From a virus, in IMG/VR virus record IMGVR_UViG_3300035211_000102: a stretch of DNA of 22,906 nt, one strand, 5' to 3'. The notes under the pieces were generated by a model. The model saw only the letters and a list, made by a program, of their open reading frames with translations, was not told the DNA's origin and did not search any database. The position numbers were made by a program, and so were the translations under genes. Position 1 is the first letter of the stretch. Every line of letters starts with the position of its first letter. Positions 125-18,960 of the stretch are shown here, in pieces.

Positions 125-1804
125 CTAGTCCCCCATGAGTCCGATGAACTGCCCTGTCTTGACTCCTAGAATGTCAAGTATTATCTCGTCATACCCACTC
201 CTTGACACACAGTAATAACTAGGAACATCTTTTACTGTTTTGTCAACACCAATTCTTGCTATTCTAGTCTCCGCCTGAGAATGAATCGCCGGACTATAAT
301 CCAACTCAGCAAACACACAACATGTCGCCCGATATTGCAACCCATCAAGACCAGCCGCCGACCTCAAACTCAACACCACGACATCCGTCTTCCGGTCCAA
401 GAACGACCGGACCGCCTTGTCCTTCTGGTTCTGCGTCTGCTTCCCTGTGATAAACACAGGCCCATATTTCGCCAGACACTCTGCCAATATCTTATGAACG
501 TCATGGTGCCACGCATATACGAGAGGTTTCTCTCCCGCCTCGACAAGCGAAGCAACGAAATCAGCAACGTACCGAGCCTTCGCAACCCCAGCCGCCCTCC
601 GCGTCTCCCCCTCGACCTCTCTGGCAAGTCGCCCCTTTTCCGTGAACGATGCCGTCAACCACGTTTTCGCCTTCTTTTTCGCCGATTCAATCAGCGAGTC
701 ATACAGATCGTCATCTTGTTGCAGATCCTTCACCATACGAGAAATCGGAGGGATGTCCATTTGAACATTCTCGTATCGTCTTCTCAACAATAACCCCTCG
801 CGCACCAGGTGACCATTTAAAGCCTTCGGATCTGATACTATCTTCTCCCCGTACCCAGTGCACCACTCCCGCGTGAAGGCGTCCCTGGAGCCCAGGCAGT
901 GAAATTCAAGGGAGTTCATGACCGACCAAATTTCAGCCCCATACCCATATACTGGAGTTCCCGAAGCCGCAAAAACATACTCAGCGTCCGATGACAAAAC
1001 AGACGCCGCAGAATACTTTGCAGTGCTCCCATGGCGAAGCTCTTGCACCTCGTCAAATATCACAGTCGGAAATACCTTCTCTCTCAACGCATCGGTCCAC
1101 CACGACAGAAGCCCGTAATGAATGATCGCGAACGGCGTGTCCGGAATGTCGTACGGCGTCCTGCTCTTCAGAATCGGCGCAAGAACCTTGCCCCTTTTTA
1201 TCGAAACATCAAAATCGGTATCGTACAAATCCCGATTGTAGTCACACGGGAGATCGAACAGCGCCCCGATGGCCCGTTGCCATTGCAACTGAACATGCGT
1301 CTGGCACACGACAAGAATTGGGTACTTCCCGGCTTGAGCCCCCGCCGCCAACGCACTCCAGGTTTTCCCGAGCCCCATACTATCCCCGAGCAGCGCTCGC
1401 ATGTTCTTCACAAGAAACGTCACCGCCGTCTCCTGGTACGGGAATAGTTTCCCTATGAATTCCGGAGGAGGTGTCGTCCGCTTCAAATCGACCCCACTGA
1501 TCCGACTCTGCCACTTTGTGACAGCCTTCTCCTTGTGCTTCTCGAACTGCTCCGGACACAGGATCTCCAGCGGAAACCGCATCATGAGCCAGTTCAGATC
1601 CCCGATCTCCCTGGTCGATCCCCCGAACAGGACCGCCGCGTCATTCCCGCGCCATGAAGTGCACCCTGGGAATACCCGCTTCGCGTACTCCAACACGATT
1701 GGCTCCCCCCTCAAGACGAACTTCCCCTTCGCGAACTTGAGTTCGCCATACTTGTGACCGGTGTTCGATGCGTCTTTTAGGTAATCAGGGATCTCTCTTT
1801 CCAC
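125..1804 (-). CDS. SNF2/RAD54-family DEAD/DEAH-box helicase (ATPase)
   Basis: 559-aa ORF. SNF2 N-terminal signature LFPYQETAVTFL, Walker A GDSMGLGKT, motif II IFDEVQEL, helicase-C motifs LSLRSAAGLDGLQ and QAETRIARIG. The start is GTG at 1804 and the first ATG lies far inside, so the 5' end is uncertain. Confidence 0.85.
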   Translation of the reverse strand: MEREIPDYLKDASNTGHKYGELKFAKGKFVLRGEPIVLEYAKRVFPGCTSWRGNDAAVLFGGSTREIGDLNWLMMRFPLEILCPEQFEKHKEKAVTKWQSRISGVDLKRTTPPPEFIGKLFPYQETAVTFLVKNMRALLGDSMGLGKTWSALAAGAQAGKYPILVVCQTHVQLQWQRAIGALFDLPCDYNRDLYDTDFDVSIKRGKVLAPILKSRTPYDIPDTPFAIIHYGLLSWWTDALREKVFPTVIFDEVQELRHGSTAKYSAASVLSSDAEYVFAASGTPVYGYGAEIWSVMNSLEFHCLGSRDAFTREWCTGYGEKIVSDPKALNGHLVREGLLLRRRYENVQMDIPPISRMVKDLQQDDDLYDSLIESAKKKAKTWLTASFTEKGRLAREVEGETRRAAGVAKARYVADFVASLVEAGEKPLVYAWHHDVHKILAECLAKYGPVFITGKQTQNQKDKAVRSFLDRKTDVVVLSLRSAAGLDGLQYRATCCVFAELDYSPAIHSQAETRIARIGVDKTVKDVPSYYCVSRSGYDEIILDILGVKTGQFIGLMGD

Positions 1805-3001: not shown

Positions 3002-3244
3002 TTATTCGTCCAAGTCCGACTCCATGTACCTCGTCCACAATTCCAAAACCCTTCGGTATTCGTCTTCTGAGACGTCGCACTCAGTTTGGCCGCCTTCTCC
3101 GTCGAAATCACAGTCCCAAAACAGTACCATCTTGTTTTCTCTGACACCTATCCTGTAAACGGCAGAAAGACAAAAGCTTACCTCCCATCCTCCCATCGTC
3201 TTAAACGACGCAGTCTTCTTAATTTTATCAAATGGAATCCCCAC
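3002..3244 (-). CDS. hypothetical acidic protein
   Basis: 80-aa ORF, tightly packed (2-nt gap to the upstream gene). Confidence 0.4.
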   Translation of the reverse strand: MGIPFDKIKKTASFKTMGGWEVSFCLSAVYRIGVRENKMVLFWDCDFDGEGGQTECDVSEDEYRRVLELWTRYMESDLDE

Positions 3245-3590: not shown

Positions 3591-3645
3591 CTATCTCCTT
3601 TTCCCTACGTCATCCGCAATGCCTTAACCCATCAACTCTTACATT

Positions 3646-4857: not shown

Positions 4858-5380
4858 TTTGATATCTCCTTAAGTCATCCGCCAGATTCTCCAGGCCATG
4901 CTTTGGACACCTTCCCTCTCCAACCTCATCACACATACATGGGCCTTCCAGTCCAACCTTCATATACCCAAGAAAAGCCTCAAGCTTCTTGCAAACTCGC
5001 CCCCTTGACACCTCATCATCTCCGTCAGGGTCTTGACTCTCAATATCTGGCAAATCAGAAAGCTCTTTCAGGCAATCCTCAATCAAAGACACCGCAAGAT
5101 TCAACCTGTCGTACACGAATAAAAAATCACACAGAGGACAATCCACGCGGCTCCACATGTTCTTATGATCATCGCAAATTCCAAGCGGATTCTTCACCTG
5201 GTACACATTCGGCACCTCTACCACCTCATTGTCTGGAAAATCTTTTTTGTACTCTTCGATATCGTATGCTTCTTCCTCGAAACCCTCCTTCACAAAATAC
5301 AGACCAGGTTGCTTATCGAACACCAGATGCCATCTTCTCTGGCCATCAATATCGGAATTTATCCAGTAAAGATTTTCCAT
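4841..5380 (-). CDS. hypothetical Cys-cluster protein
   Basis: 179 aa with CPLCD ... CMCDEVGEGRCPKHG, a possible metal-binding cluster. Confidence 0.5.
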   Translation of the reverse strand: MENLYWINSDIDGQRRWHLVFDKQPGLYFVKEGFEEEAYDIEEYKKDFPDNEVVEVPNVYQVKNPLGICDDHKNMWSRVDCPLCDFLFVYDRLNLAVSLIEDCLKELSDLPDIESQDPDGDDEVSRGRVCKKLEAFLGYMKVGLEGPCMCDEVGEGRCPKHGLENLADDLRRYQNGKDA

Positions 5381-7840: not shown

Positions 7841-8019
7841 GCCGGTACCTTCTCCATGATCTCCGCGAGCTTCTTCCTCTGAGGGGCGGTCAACTCTTTC
7901 CCACTGTCAAGCCTCTCCTCGATAGAGTCTAGATAGTTGATCTCCCACTCACTGAGAGATATCTTCTCGTCCTCCACCGCGTTCCTGATTGTCTCTATGT
8001 CGTCAAAGTCTGCTTTCAT
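7834..8019 (-). CDS. hypothetical acidic protein (track ORF 7834..8136, start re-assigned)
   Basis: The ATG at 8019 forms an ATGA overlap with the stop of 8016..8342. The track's longer version would overlap the upstream gene by 120 nt. Confidence 0.35.
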   Translation of the reverse strand: MKADFDDIETIRNAVEDEKISLSEWEINYLDSIEERLDSGKELTAPQRKKLAEIMEKVPAW

Positions 8020-15972: not shown

Positions 15973-16238
15973 CTTTCCTTCAGCCTTCTCAGCCTCGCGA
16001 CAATGTTCCCGGTAAATGACTCTGGTCCACCAGGGGCCTCTATCACCCCCTCTTCCTCGTCGCAATCGAATACCCCTGAATACTCGGGATCTTCCAGCAG
16101 ATCGTCTTCGTCGTAGAAAATACCGGGCGGTATCCTGAAGTCTCCATTGGGATCCTCGCTAGATAAAACACTTCTACCCACCGAAGAACTCCTGCCCCTT
16201 TCCCCAAGGAACGCCCATCTCTGTCTAGCCTTTCCCAT
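15969..16238 (-). CDS. hypothetical acidic protein whose RBS and first 18 codons are duplicated at 17855..17921
   Basis: 89 aa, starting MGKARQRWAFLGERGRSS. AGGAAA RBS 6 nt upstream of the start. Confidence 0.45.
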   Translation of the reverse strand: MGKARQRWAFLGERGRSSSVGRSVLSSEDPNGDFRIPPGIFYDEDDLLEDPEYSGVFDCDEEEGVIEAPGGPESFTGNIVARLRRLKER

Positions 16239-16250
16239 CCAAGTTTCCTA
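16185..16250. repeat. dispersed direct repeat, copy A (RBS + start + about 18 codons)
   Basis: AGAACTCCTGCCCCTTTCCCCAAGGAACGCCCATCTCTGTCTAGCCTTTCCCAT... About 90% identical to 17855..17921. Confidence 0.7.
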
Positions 16251-16274
16251 ACCGTCCAGTGAATTAATCAAACA

Positions 16275-16583
16275 TCAATCCGCGACCTGCCTCCACCCTT
16301 CTGGAGTGTATTCCCTTTGACGAAACGCTCGGTAATCCCCTGGCGGCAATGTGATAGTTGAGTGCTCATCGTGTACAATGTCTGTTGCCTCTTGAGCACG
16401 AATATAGGCGATTCCGGCCGCTACCATCAGCGCGGCCTTCGCCCCATCACTTATTCGGTGCGTATGCCCCGTAACCTCGCCACGAACGATGATCCCGGCT
16501 TCCTGCTCTTTCGCTTCTGTCGGAATTGAATCCGTTTTCACGATAAAAATGTCACCCTGTCGATACAAATTTAGCTTACCCAT
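16275..16583 (-). CDS. hypothetical protein
   Basis: ATG at 16583 (MGKLNLYRQGDIFIVK...) preceded by CAGGAGGCG and lying 1 nt after the upstream stop. The track ORF start at 16823 would overlap the upstream gene by 240 nt. Confidence 0.5.
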   Translation of the reverse strand: MGKLNLYRQGDIFIVKTDSIPTEAKEQEAGIIVRGEVTGHTHRISDGAKAALMVAAGIAYIRAQEATDIVHDEHSTITLPPGDYRAFRQREYTPEGWRQVAD

Positions 16584-16584
16584 C

Positions 16585-17877
16585 TCACGCCTCCTGTATT
16601 GGTTCGTAGTCTTTCTCTTCCTGCCATCCGGTCCATGCAACAGCCTGATGCGCTGTCGTGCACTCGGGTGGCACTCGTAATGCATAGCGTCTATTAGTGG
16701 AAGGATCCGACACAAAAACAAATTTTGCGATAGGATCTTCCCCATCGAGGTACTCCCCGAGCCGGTCCGTACTGACGAGTGTACCATATCGGTCTGTTTG
16801 CTCAGTGGTTGCCTGAAGGTCAATTAATAAACGGTCCCACCCATATCTCTCCAGCATTACTCTCCTGATCTCCTGATTGTTTTCGGTCAGAACTTTTTGT
16901 GGCGTAATCTTTTCTGGCGACTCTATCACCCACTGTGGCACACGTACTCCATGCCACGCCCAGATGCCAAATCCGTCTGCATACTCTAAAGCCCTCCTAG
17001 ATTCATGATGCAATCTGAAATTGTCATCCCGCGTGAGAAAAATTGGACGCTCCGTAAATATCACCGCGTTATCAAGCGGCCACCACCAACCAACCTCTTT
17101 GGAAAATTCAATCATCGGCCGTAACAACTGACACTCGTCCTGCAAATATTTATAAAAATAATCATAAAATGACAGCCAACTCGAATCATGAATTCCATAT
17201 CCACATCTATGCACCTGATCCAAGACCTGATCCTTGACCTGATCCTTGACCTGAGCCTTGACTTGATCCCAGACCTGACCCCAGACCTGTTCCCTAACCT
17301 GATCCCAGACCTTAGCCCTGACCTGATCCCTGACCTGAGACTTGACCTGAGCCCATACCTGATCCCAGACCTGACCCCCTACTTGATCCCAGACCTGATC
17401 CTTGACCTGAGCCATAACTTGATCCCCGACCTGATCCCCGACCTGATCCCAGACCTGACCCCAGACCTGATCCCCGACTTGATCCCAGACCTGACCCAAG
17501 ACCTGAGCCATGACCTTATCCCCGACCTTATCCCTGACCTTATCCCTGACCTGATCCTCGACCTGAGCCCCGACCTGAGCCCAGACCTGATCCTTGACCT
17601 GAGCCATAACTTGATCCCTGGCCTTATCCTCGACCTTGCCCAGCAATACAGATCCAATCCACCCCGCTATCGGAGAGGATAACCATATTTTAATTTTTGG
17701 TGGTTCTAGCCCCGCCGACTGATAAACTGGATCAATCAGCCGTTCGCATTTTTTCCGATCACATGGTCCAGTCTGGAGACCTATTTTCAGCCATCGCTCC
17801 CGGACTCTCTGCATTCTATCTACTTGTTCCTCGTTCAATTCCGTCAATATCATCAGAACTCCTGCCCCTTTCCCCAA
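16585..17877 (-). CDS. tetrapeptide-repeat protein (x-Q-V-x)35 flanked by unique N- and C-terminal domains
   Basis: 430-aa track ORF (TTG start). About 140 central residues are in-frame [D/A/G]-Q-V-[W/K/R/M/G/E/L] repeats. The unique C-terminal domain contains WAWHGVRVPQWV...RVPPECTTAHQAVAWTGW. The true start may be the ATG at 17853 or a reinitiation ATG just after an upstream uORF. Confidence 0.6.
   Translation of the reverse strand: MGKGAGVLMILTELNEEQVDRMQRVRERWLKIGLQTGPCDRKKCERLIDPVYQSAGLEPPKIKIWLSSPIAGWIGSVLLGKVEDKARDQVMAQVKDQVWAQVGAQVEDQVRDKVRDKVGDKVMAQVLGQVWDQVGDQVWGQVWDQVGDQVGDQVMAQVKDQVWDQVGGQVWDQVWAQVKSQVRDQVRAKVWDQVREQVWGQVWDQVKAQVKDQVKDQVLDQVHRCGYGIHDSSWLSFYDYFYKYLQDECQLLRPMIEFSKEVGWWWPLDNAVIFTERPIFLTRDDNFRLHHESRRALEYADGFGIWAWHGVRVPQWVIESPEKITPQKVLTENNQEIRRVMLERYGWDRLLIDLQATTEQTDRYGTLVSTDRLGEYLDGEDPIAKFVFVSDPSTNRRYALRVPPECTTAHQAVAWTGWQEEKDYEPIQEA
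17217..17636. repeat. 35 contiguous copies of a 12-bp tandem repeat (plus-strand consensus GATCCYWGACCT)
   Basis: Directly visible in the sequence, e.g. gatccttgacct gatccttgacct gagccttgactt gatcccagacct ... The units are in frame, so the other two frames are open as well. Confidence 0.9.
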
Positions 17878-17921
17878 GGAAAGCCAACCTCTGTCTAGCC
17901 TTTTCCATCAAAATTTTCCTA
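17855..17921. repeat. dispersed direct repeat, copy B
   Basis: AGAACTCCTGCCCCTTTCCCCAAGGAAAGCCAACCTCTGTCTAGCCTTTTCCAT... This copy encodes a 30-aa uORF MEKARQRLAFLGERGRSSDDIDGIERGTSR in a different frame from the repeat-protein ORF. Confidence 0.7.
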
Positions 17922-17966
17922 TATTTTCATTGGATCTTCCTCTTACTCATGACGGCATCTCGTCGC

Positions 17967-18008
17967 CAATCTACACGCTAAATCTAATACACCCCAGTGC
18001 GTTTGTCA
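17967..18008 (-). promoter_or_regulatory. sigma70-like promoter, TTGACA-N17-TAGATT
   Basis: Minus-strand sequence TGTTGACAAACGCACTGGGGTGTATTAGATTTAGCGTGTAGATTGG. -35 at 18003-18008, -10 at 17980-17985, with a second TAGATT 7 nt further on. It overlaps the stop of the ASCH gene and lies upstream of the repeat-protein gene. Confidence 0.45.
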
Positions 18009-18766
18009 ACATTTCGGTCCACCCACGCGATAATCTCCGATTTCTCTGCCGGGATCCTCTTAAACTTTACCACCCACACCCACGGATTGCTCTCCCATGG
18101 AGCCCCACGATCCTTGTTGATCTCATCCCACTTCGCAGCGAATGCATCAACAGCATCCGATCCTGTTCCATACTTCTGGTAGGATTCAATTGAAGTGAAC
18201 TCACCATGGCTGAACTCAGGAAACCCCTCGGCAATGGCCCCTTGGTGCGTGATGTCATGAACCCGCTCGGCCCACACATCCTCGACGTCGAGAAAAATCC
18301 GAGCCATCCACTTGCACATGAACATCGAAGTGCGCCATTTCCCACGAGTTGAAATCACAGATGGACACTCTCTGAGCCCACGGCCATCTGGCCAAGAACA
18401 TTCTTCATCAGCCCTATACCAAACCGGAGGAGGAGACAGGTAAATTCCCTTGTCCCAGATAAGCCGTGGAGGACGGTCGTCGAAAAACTCGCCAGCCGCC
18501 CAGTTCTCCTTGACCCACAGCACTTCCCCCTTCTTGTACGGCTTCTTGATTACCTGCTCATCCCCCGGAACGCTCATCCTGTTGAACGACTCACGATCCT
18601 TCCTGACGCCGATCAGGACCCCGTCGTGGTCGACACTGAACATGTCAAATCTTGAGTGTCCACGGATGAGTCTCCGCGTCTCTGTCTTCTCCACGGAAAG
18701 AACCTTCAGGACAAGCTCTGGAACAAACGGGATCGGAACCATGCGCCTTCCTGTCAAGTCGAACAT
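17984..18766 (-). CDS. ASCH-domain (PUA-like) protein
   Basis: 260 aa. The N-terminal ELVLKVLSVEKTETRR matches the ASCH hallmark (L.G.KT.E.R). Confidence 0.55.
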   Translation of the reverse strand: MFDLTGRRMVPIPFVPELVLKVLSVEKTETRRLIRGHSRFDMFSVDHDGVLIGVRKDRESFNRMSVPGDEQVIKKPYKKGEVLWVKENWAAGEFFDDRPPRLIWDKGIYLSPPPVWYRADEECSWPDGRGLRECPSVISTRGKWRTSMFMCKWMARIFLDVEDVWAERVHDITHQGAIAEGFPEFSHGEFTSIESYQKYGTGSDAVDAFAAKWDEINKDRGAPWESNPWVWVVKFKRIPAEKSEIIAWVDRNVDKRTGVY

Positions 18767-18960
18767 TCGAATCTCCCCTTCGCTCTCCGCTCTCTCTCCT
18801 CCTTCGTGAACAACGTCAGTTTTCTCTCAGGAAACGGCATGGCAAGATTGTCTACGCAGTACCAAAATCCACCCTTTATGGATTCAGCCTTCGTGACATG
18901 GCCCGTACCAAATGGATAGAAGACGTAGTCCCCCACTTCGAACCTCGGCCCCCGTCCCAT
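18754..18960 (-). CDS. hypothetical protein
   Basis: 68 aa; start/stop overlap (TGATG type) with the upstream gene. Confidence 0.4.
   Translation of the reverse strand: MGRGPRFEVGDYVFYPFGTGHVTKAESIKGGFWYCVDNLAMPFPERKLTLFTKEERERRAKGRFECST

Follow-up and report, generated by a model that had tools for sequence, protein, structure and literature searches.

A duplicated gene start around a two-gene cassette in an uncultivated phage is probably an insertion scar

The metagenomic contig IMGVR_UViG_3300035211_000102 (22,906 nucleotides, analyzed over its whole length and hereafter called the window) carries on its minus strand two nearly identical copies of a module of about 65 nucleotides, each containing a ribosome-binding site (RBS), an ATG, and some 18 codons. 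Why should the start of a gene be found twice, 1.6 kb apart? An earlier, sequence-only reading took the module to be a copied translation-initiation cassette, either a footprint of recombination between paralogous leaders or a leader peptide reused in front of two genes. One of the two, encoding a repeat-containing protein, was supposed to be translated by reinitiation after a short upstream open reading frame (uORF). The observation is confirmed and the interpretation partly supported. The module is very probably the 5' end of one small resident gene, here called p89, duplicated when a pair of genes, DUF6745 and p102, was inserted at its start: an insertion scar, not a regulatory module built for the purpose.

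The repeat itself is well defined. A repeat finder gave a 62-nucleotide direct repeat (16185-16246 and 17855-17916, 90% identity, spacing 1670 nucleotides), and gapped local alignment lengthens it to 16185-16250 (copy A) and 17855-17921 (copy B), where 60 of 67 columns match, with six mismatches and one gap. The identity of roughly 90% over about 65 base pairs claimed for the module is thus borne out. Read along the minus strand, copy A is TAGGAAACTTGGATGGGAAAGGCTAGACAGAGATGGGCGTTCCTTGGGGAAAGGGGCAGGAGTTCT (16250 to 16185) and copy B is TAGGAAAATTTTGATGGAAAAGGCTAGACAGAGGTTGGCTTTCCTTGGGGAAAGGGGCAGGAGTTCT (17921 to 17855). From the ATG on, 50 of 54 bases are identical, and the final 27 nucleotides are the same throughout. 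The core 25-mer occurs twice in the window and not once in 100 dinucleotide-preserving shuffles.

The contigs are metagenomic, and mis-assembly can create repeats. The duplication is nonetheless not an artefact, since the arrangement recurs on a second contig and the two copies differ at seven positions. The second contig, from JGI (9,463 nucleotides), has gene order and spacing identical to those of the window, and a Logan contig from another run is 100% identical across copy A. The exact products of 30, 422, 102, and 89 amino acids that are discussed below have each been recorded from two contigs. A chimeric or mis-joined contig as the source of the duplicate keeps scarcely any probability.

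What, then, is the module? Most of it (54 of 66 nucleotides) is coding sequence. Copy A provides a weak RBS in the form AGGA-N7-ATG, with the ATG at 16238, and codons 1-18 (MGKARQRWAFLGERGRSS) of an 89-codon open reading frame (ORF), p89 (15969-16238, minus strand), much as the sequence-only reading had it, and is the functional start of that intact gene. The protein p89 is small and specific to its lineage: a single-sequence search among 5.8 billion proteins returned p89 itself and nothing else, and IMG/VR gave no homolog. Orthologs were located solely by synteny with the upstream neighbor, p260 (phrog_874; 17984-18766, minus strand), which served as the anchor. The comparison set consisted of 153 fetched loci (1.5 Mb), among which L147, L148, and L149 are contigs of p260 relatives. 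The p260 orthologs of L147 and L149 are 72% and 62% identical to that of the window, and these contigs are the two closest relatives found. In L147, p260 is followed by a homologous, promoter-bearing intergenic region and then by a p89 ortholog of 70 amino acids (10929-11141; MRTSRQRWAFLKDG...GNIVSRLRELKDR); in L149, it is followed by a homologous intergenic region and an ortholog of 64 amino acids (3016-3210; MGTARQRWAFLHDP...GNIVAWLRELRKTQ). Residues 5-11 of p89 (RQRWAFL) are identical in all three orthologs, with six of the seven codons synonymously different in at least one genome, and the C-terminal motif GNIV..LREL is also common to them. Because the residues are fixed while the codons vary synonymously, the pattern marks the peptide, and not a DNA or RNA element, as what is conserved, and the 89-amino-acid ORF gives every appearance of being a real, conserved small gene.

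In both relatives, p260, the intergenic region, and p89 are contiguous, with a single p89 start and no cassette between. The order on the minus strand of the window is p260, an intergenic region of 75 nucleotides, copy B, DUF6745, p102, a 24-nucleotide spacer, copy A with p89, and then p61, p215, and others. Here the end of p260, the intergenic region, and copy B are colinear with their counterparts in L147 and L149, but what lies upstream of copy A is not. It is on account of this colinearity that copy B may be taken to mark the ancestral position of the p89 start, and L147 and L149 to represent the empty site. The repeats bracket exactly the DUF6745+p102 pair, within an inserted segment of 1,604 nucleotides (16251-17854, minus strand) made up of the DUF6745 gene (16585-17853, minus strand, 422 amino acids), the p102 gene (phrog_27831; 16275-16583, minus strand, 102 amino acids), and 24 nucleotides of 3' flank. 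There would thus be two copies because the cassette was inserted between them and not because a leader was reused. The recombination footprint suspected earlier stands, but not its placement between paralogous leaders, as the module is the 5' end of a single gene. Nor does the reuse of a leader peptide before two genes survive, given the single-copy p89 start in L147 and L149 and the absence of the module, or anything similar, from all 23 other evaluable DUF6745+p102 loci (L147 and 22 loci from IMG/VR).

The sequence of events may be pictured as follows. In the ancestor, p89 would have lain directly after p260, behind a promoter in the intergenic region. A promoterless cassette of 1,604 nucleotides would then have entered through two staggered non-homologous joints about 66 nucleotides apart, the left joint falling one base before the DUF6745 ATG and the right one 24 nucleotides past the p102 stop. 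Owing to the stagger, the stretch between the joints would now stand on both sides of the insert. Copy A would have left p89 complete with its own RBS. Copy B, directly after the intergenic region at the old position, would be a leftover p89 start (AGGA RBS, ATG, 18 codons) whose frame continues into the DUF6745 gene, out of register with it, and closes after 30 codons, while DUF6745 itself, starting at ATG 17853, would borrow the AGGAG of p89 codons 16-17 for its Shine-Dalgarno sequence. Illegitimate recombination, or else template switching in replication, was probably responsible, not an enzyme encoded by the element. The copies differ by two amino acids, G2E and W8L, both changes lying in copy B at sites that p89 orthologs conserve, W8 being invariant among them; this fits a relaxed constraint on a relic.

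As for the source of the cassette, most likely it was another site in the same phage lineage. L147 carries the pair too, at 16115-17736, about 5 kb downstream of its p89 site, next after the RlaP gene, with a further copy of a promoter-leader element (described below) in front of it. The cassettes of the window and of L147 are 69.5% identical in nucleotide sequence over 1 kb, and the backbone genes 67-74%. Because the cassette is as similar to its L147 counterpart as the backbone is, relocation within the lineage is suggested, not import from a distant phage. The flanks of the L147 cassette contain neither the module nor any other long repeat. The slot downstream of RlaP is itself variable: in L147 (16093-17776) it holds the cassette, and in the window (8016-8753) it holds other content, namely a cysteine-rich ORF of 54 amino acids, a pilin-like ORF, a promoter-leader element, and an ORF of about 90 amino acids (8016-8286). 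No remnant of the cassette was seen in the window slot.

The age of the event can be bounded. The copies differ by only about 7-10%, as against about 30% for orthologous DNA, so the duplication should have followed the divergence from L147, provided that gene conversion has not homogenized the copies.

Several considerations weigh against so simple a history. The empty site is seen in two relatives only, both about 30% diverged at the DNA level, and none closer came to light, either carrying the insert or lacking it. (More distant relatives, reached through a vault-like protein at about 56% identity, L150-L153, have neither p89 nor DUF6745 in the 14-23 kb sampled and say nothing about the insertion site.) The mechanism is inferred, since neither the donor site nor the precise joints can be reconstructed, and the candidate microhomologies, TAGGA at the right joint and GTTC at the left, depend on L147 taking the place of the donor. 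If gene conversion has acted between the copies, the duplication may be older than it looks; the cassette might then have been lost from the relatives, through recombination of the repeats with each other, instead of gained by the window. Exact look-ups found no hybrid peptides, of p89 or of the uORF, such as recombination or conversion between the repeats should produce, which is a weak negative. The identity of the last 27 nucleotides, which hold the DUF6745 Shine-Dalgarno sequence, could mean that selection acts on a function of copy B. Finally, a 19-mer scan of JGI metagenome contigs gave 11 matches, all without flanking similarity and hence due to chance, but the scan missed the window itself and is a weak negative; further copies of the module could lie elsewhere in this phage, of whose genome the analysis covered the 22.9-kb contig.

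Elsewhere the search for further copies was more telling. The window has no third copy within three mismatches, none was seen in the 153 fetched loci, and a 21-mer of the module gave no match in IMG/VR. The search of related genomes for additional copies, proposed with the sequence-only reading, therefore yielded no further module; what it did yield was a p89 start encoding the same peptide, once each in L147 and L149. A multi-copy regulatory element finds no support, there being no third copy in the window or the fetched loci. A structured RNA or riboswitch-like leader was rejected: the folding energies of both copies, on both strands, are no better than those of shuffled sequences (z between -0.3 and +0.3), with no stable hairpin, and Rfam offers no match to the module at E <= 1.

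If copy B is a relic, what becomes of the 30-codon ORF that it opens? This ORF (17816-17908, minus strand) consists of 18 codons from the start of p89 and 12 out-of-frame codons from the DUF6745 gene (MEKARQRLAFLGERGRSSDDIDGIERGTSR), and it has been called as a gene on two JGI contigs. As had been pointed out, its frame differs from that of the gene for the repeat protein, with which it overlaps by 38 nucleotides, and its stop codon TAG (17816-17818) is followed, after a single A (17815), by an ATG (17812-17814; M14 of the DUF6745 protein) that is in frame with the DUF6745 ORF. From this geometry one may build the case that the module is a regulatory leader placed deliberately before two genes, with the repeat protein made by termination-reinitiation at the ATG one base past the uORF stop. 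The case has some substance. The TAG-A-ATG arrangement is real, the uORF retains a promoter, an RBS, and an open frame, and the last 27 nucleotides of the two copies are identical.

The start of the DUF6745 gene speaks otherwise. Fourteen DUF6745 homologs begin M-x(2-5)-I..LT.EQ, in agreement with the family consensus, and in the window the motif runs from ATG 17853 (MILTELNEEQ). Five nucleotides upstream of that ATG lies AGGAG (17859-17863, minus strand), the p89 codons 16-17 of copy B and the likely Shine-Dalgarno sequence of DUF6745; a survey of starts in the window shows GGAG, AGGAG, or GGAGG at a distance of 5-9 nucleotides to be common among its genes. On the second contig, an independent gene call likewise takes the start that gives 422 amino acids. 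For these three reasons (homolog motif, AGGAG-N5-ATG, and independent call), the gene most likely starts at ATG 17853, one base past the repeat. A start at M14 would delete the conserved N-terminal motif, the methionine is not conserved, and no RBS is in range, so that the repeat protein is unlikely to begin at the reinitiation ATG. The TTG at 17877 that the annotation track offers as the start does lie inside copy B, as was remarked, and no Shine-Dalgarno sequence precedes it. With the conserved motif upstream of M14 and an RBS favoring ATG 17853, the TAG-A-ATG geometry is most likely incidental.

A regulatory leader would also have to be reconciled with its being simply the start of p89, in single copy, in L147 and L149, with the lack of such a leader at any of the 23 other evaluable DUF6745 loci, with the want of RNA structure, Rfam family, or terminator-like site, and with locus A, where the supposed leader is fused in frame to a protein and there is no separate uORF. 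As an explanation of the locus, it is highly improbable. The 30-codon ORF may well be translated, across the start site of DUF6745, since the promoter and RBS of p89 are retained. It shows no sign of having evolved as a regulator, however, and looks to be a by-product of the insertion. A programmed frameshift from the uORF into the DUF6745 frame was considered and rejected: it would require a +1 shift, and no slippery heptamer lies in register on the sequence read.

If the DUF6745 cassette has borrowed a start signal from p89, it would seem to have borrowed a promoter as well. The element between p260 and p89 (17925-18016, minus strand) contains, by promoter scan, a sigma-70-like promoter, TTGACA-17-TAGATT (18009-17981), and a conserved leader of the form GAGAT...GAGATG; its beginning coincides with the stop codon of the gene upstream. 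The element is conserved in L147 (10832-10930) and L149 (2869-2960), and additional copies are found in the window at 8284-8368 (minus strand) and in L147 at 16083-16175. All follow one layout: TGTTGACAAA, 17 nucleotides, TAnnnT, about 6 nucleotides, GAGAT(T/A), 6-7 nucleotides, a sequence like GAGATGTC, a Shine-Dalgarno sequence, and a start codon. Perhaps it is an operator or leader for a phage regulator. In the window, the predicted promoter stands upstream of copy B only. The ends of the cassette contain no promoter-like or terminator-like site, the insert opening one nucleotide before its ATG, and a scan found no terminator-like site between the promoter at 18009-17981 and p89. The old p89 promoter presumably drives all four reading frames (the uORF, DUF6745, p102, and p89).

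One copy of this promoter-leader element lies just upstream of the DUF6745+p102 cassette in the window as well as in L147, a fact that invites comparison with the PeSL cassettes of T4-type phages, which the element resembles in composition. Might the module, then, have pre-existed at several sites, the gene pair moving between them as a circle through homologous recombination? PeSL-based mini-circles provide a precedent (PMC2839356), the lineage does have repeated promoter-leader elements, and in one DUF6745 locus, L005, an intergenic repeat of 79 nucleotides (91% identical) flanks a block ending in the pair. The repeat in the window, however, is p89 coding sequence and not the promoter element; it has neither promoter nor stem-loop, is single-copy in L147 and L149, and is known in two copies altogether, and the cassette of L147 lacks the module or any long repeat at its flanks. 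Such a route is very unlikely.

The p102 gene adjoins a DUF6745 gene, in either order, in 35 of the 54 IMG/VR loci retrieved with p102, which points to a conserved two-gene module. The DUF6745 protein (Pfam DUF6745, E = 7e-44) contains about 35 tandem four-residue repeats, encoded by 12-nucleotide units, and the array (17213-17632, minus strand) gives tetrapeptides of the xQVxD type. In the family at large, such arrays sit between a conserved N-terminal region and a C-terminal domain and range from about 25 to about 70 copies; the period of four residues is constant and the unit varies, being xQVxD in the window and in L147 (16115-17425), [RDG]QSL in L002 (3659-5002), and of the xAVxD type in L005 (2992-4872). 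The other protein, p102, has a histidine-rich motif, GEVTGHTHR...HDEH, which could be a putative metal-binding site. Nothing credible as to function emerged from sequence searches of PADLOC, NCBIfam, and PDB, and a literature search found no paper mentioning DUF6745. The domain is modeled with high confidence (predicted local distance difference test, pLDDT, of 95), and the predicted fold is similar to no solved structure, nucleases and recombinases included; the single-sequence model of p102 (pLDDT 36) is unusable.

The pair might be regarded as an autonomous mobile element, entering at the starts of genes and duplicating its target over long and varying lengths. In favor are its conservation and its wide scatter over phage contigs unrelated to one another, its different locations in the window and L147, and the target-like direct repeats beside it in the window (66 nucleotides) and in L025 (17 nucleotides). 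Yet the cassette of the window has no terminal inverted repeats, it matches no transposase, integrase, or nuclease family in Pfam, PHROGs, NCBIfam, or PADLOC, and its modeled domain is unlike any solved nuclease or recombinase. The flanks of the other evaluable loci also count against mobility, for in 20 of the 23, L147 among them, the flanking repeats amount to short multi-copy intergenic motifs at most, and in 18 no repeat rises above the shuffle control. The left boundary varies besides, falling exactly at the ATG in the window and 36 nucleotides upstream of the ATG in L025. An autonomous element is very improbable.

The loci that do have flanking repeats merit description all the same. In L025, the pair is enclosed by a 17-nucleotide repeat (CATGACCACAGAYCAAC; 3595-3611 and 5341-5357) that comprises the ATG of the downstream gene with five further codons, and a mini-ORF of six codons is left upstream. 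In L005, the block flanked by the 79-nucleotide repeat contains five genes; the full repeat, about 95 nucleotides long (2053-2146 and 5250-5347), adds to the 79-nucleotide part a 17-nucleotide RBS-ATG motif, variants of which are found at about eight sites, mostly gene starts. L004 and L035 have only short intergenic motifs in three copies. There is a small probability that the cassette prefers a mode of insertion at gene starts. A stronger statement, that DUF6745+p102 is self-propagating or specifically mobilized and inserts at the 5' ends of resident genes, duplicating the initiation region (17 to about 80 nucleotides), is quite unlikely. Were it so, the cassette would hijack the promoter and RBS of the resident, the resident gene would stay intact, and the window, L025, and perhaps L005 would show three footprints of one insertion mechanism.

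The surroundings of the locus are those of a phage. Essentially all plausible genes of the window lie on the minus strand, and those recognized by Pfam and PHROGs are phage-like (an SNF2 helicase, phrog_62; a DnaJ-like protein; and an RlaP-type nucleotidyltransferase, phrog_388), accompanied by many small ORFs without known relatives. A blastn search with 15700-18800 gave no match among annotated phage genomes. The helicase of the window (125-1804) has no intein; its ortholog in L152 (19622-19860 and beyond; 1,040 amino acids) has an intein and LAGLIDADG domains. The pilin-like ORF mentioned above (8374-8565, minus strand) has an N-terminus resembling that of type IV pilins (MKRGFTLIELMIVIVIVGILA...), and the distant relatives L150 and L152 have one or two small ORFs with an N_methyl domain in the corresponding region, upstream of the RlaP gene. 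A protein of 892 amino acids (11375-14053, minus strand) has the shoulder and repeat domains of the Major Vault Protein (Pfam MVP_shoulder, E = 1.6e-23; Vault_3). It is kept in L147 and L149 at 66-68% identity, and its gene lies directly downstream of a DUF3268 gene in all three. At E <= 1e-50 it matches 3,833 database proteins, including some from bacterial metagenome-assembled genomes and from phage-like contigs of about 97 kb (L152) and about 125 kb (L150). Vault-like proteins are unusual in phages and merit a study of their own.

What does the locus teach? Taken as an insertion scar, it would be a clean, datable example of how an uncultivated phage gains or relocates accessory genes with no damage to the gene at the point of insertion: the duplicated target rebuilds the start of the resident, donates a promoter and a Shine-Dalgarno sequence to a promoterless cassette, and leaves a short relic ORF behind. 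For annotation, the 30-amino-acid "gene" is best regarded as a remnant, ATG 17853 and not TTG 17877 or M14 as the most likely start of the repeat protein, and the 89-amino-acid ORF as a real gene. The arrangement would be an ordinary by-product of phage genome shuffling and calls for no new principle of regulation. Of more interest are two leads at the margin: the widespread DUF6745+p102 pair, with its predicted fold lacking a solved match, and the vault-protein-like gene nearby.

How does the scar compare with systems already described? Target-site duplications made by transposases are usually 2-15 bp in length. The window resembles them in that a target sequence is directly duplicated on both sides of the insert, and differs in the length of the repeat (66 nucleotides), the lack of terminal inverted repeats, and the lack of an encoded transposase. 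Translational coupling presents a different likeness. Adhin and van Duin are said to have put forward a scanning model of termination-reinitiation for the lysis gene of MS2, and in the window, as in such systems, a short upstream ORF overlaps the start of the next gene, with its stop beside an in-frame ATG. Here, however, a conserved start with a Shine-Dalgarno sequence is found 38 nucleotides upstream of the uORF stop, the arrangement is seen in no homologous locus, and the history of insertion would explain it.

Morons, a concept of Hendrix and Juhala (as described in PMC3029335), are extra genes found between genes that are adjacent in related phages and are provided with their own promoter and terminator. 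The cassette of the window likewise lies between two genes adjacent in related phages, but it starts at its ATG and would depend on the promoter of the resident gene and on a Shine-Dalgarno sequence that the duplicated target supplies. The PeSL cassettes of T4-type phages are multi-copy intergenic units of promoter and stem-loop, between which homologous recombination takes place (Arbiol et al. 2010, PMC2839356). They and the module have in common that short repeats ending in a Shine-Dalgarno sequence and start codon flank mobile ORFs in plastic regions, whereas the module is two-copy, mostly coding, devoid of promoter and stem-loop, and single-copy in relatives.

The closest documented analogue appears to be the mycobacteriophage LRRHood, whose genes 43-46 form a four-gene insert of 1.35 kb between direct repeats of 29 bp, a sequence that relatives carry once (Pope et al. 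2011, PMC3029335). In both cases, a multi-gene segment missing from relatives is bracketed by a direct repeat present there once, and two readings lie open, gain by recombination or loss in the relatives by way of the repeats. The repeat of the window is longer (66-67 nucleotides), is about 10% diverged, and constitutes the RBS and first 18 codons of the downstream gene; it creates a short ORF and would donate a Shine-Dalgarno sequence, and the cassette is found at another site in a relative. By this analogy, the window would seem to join a known class of phage inserts flanked by direct repeats, with the added detail that the duplicated target is a translation-initiation region.

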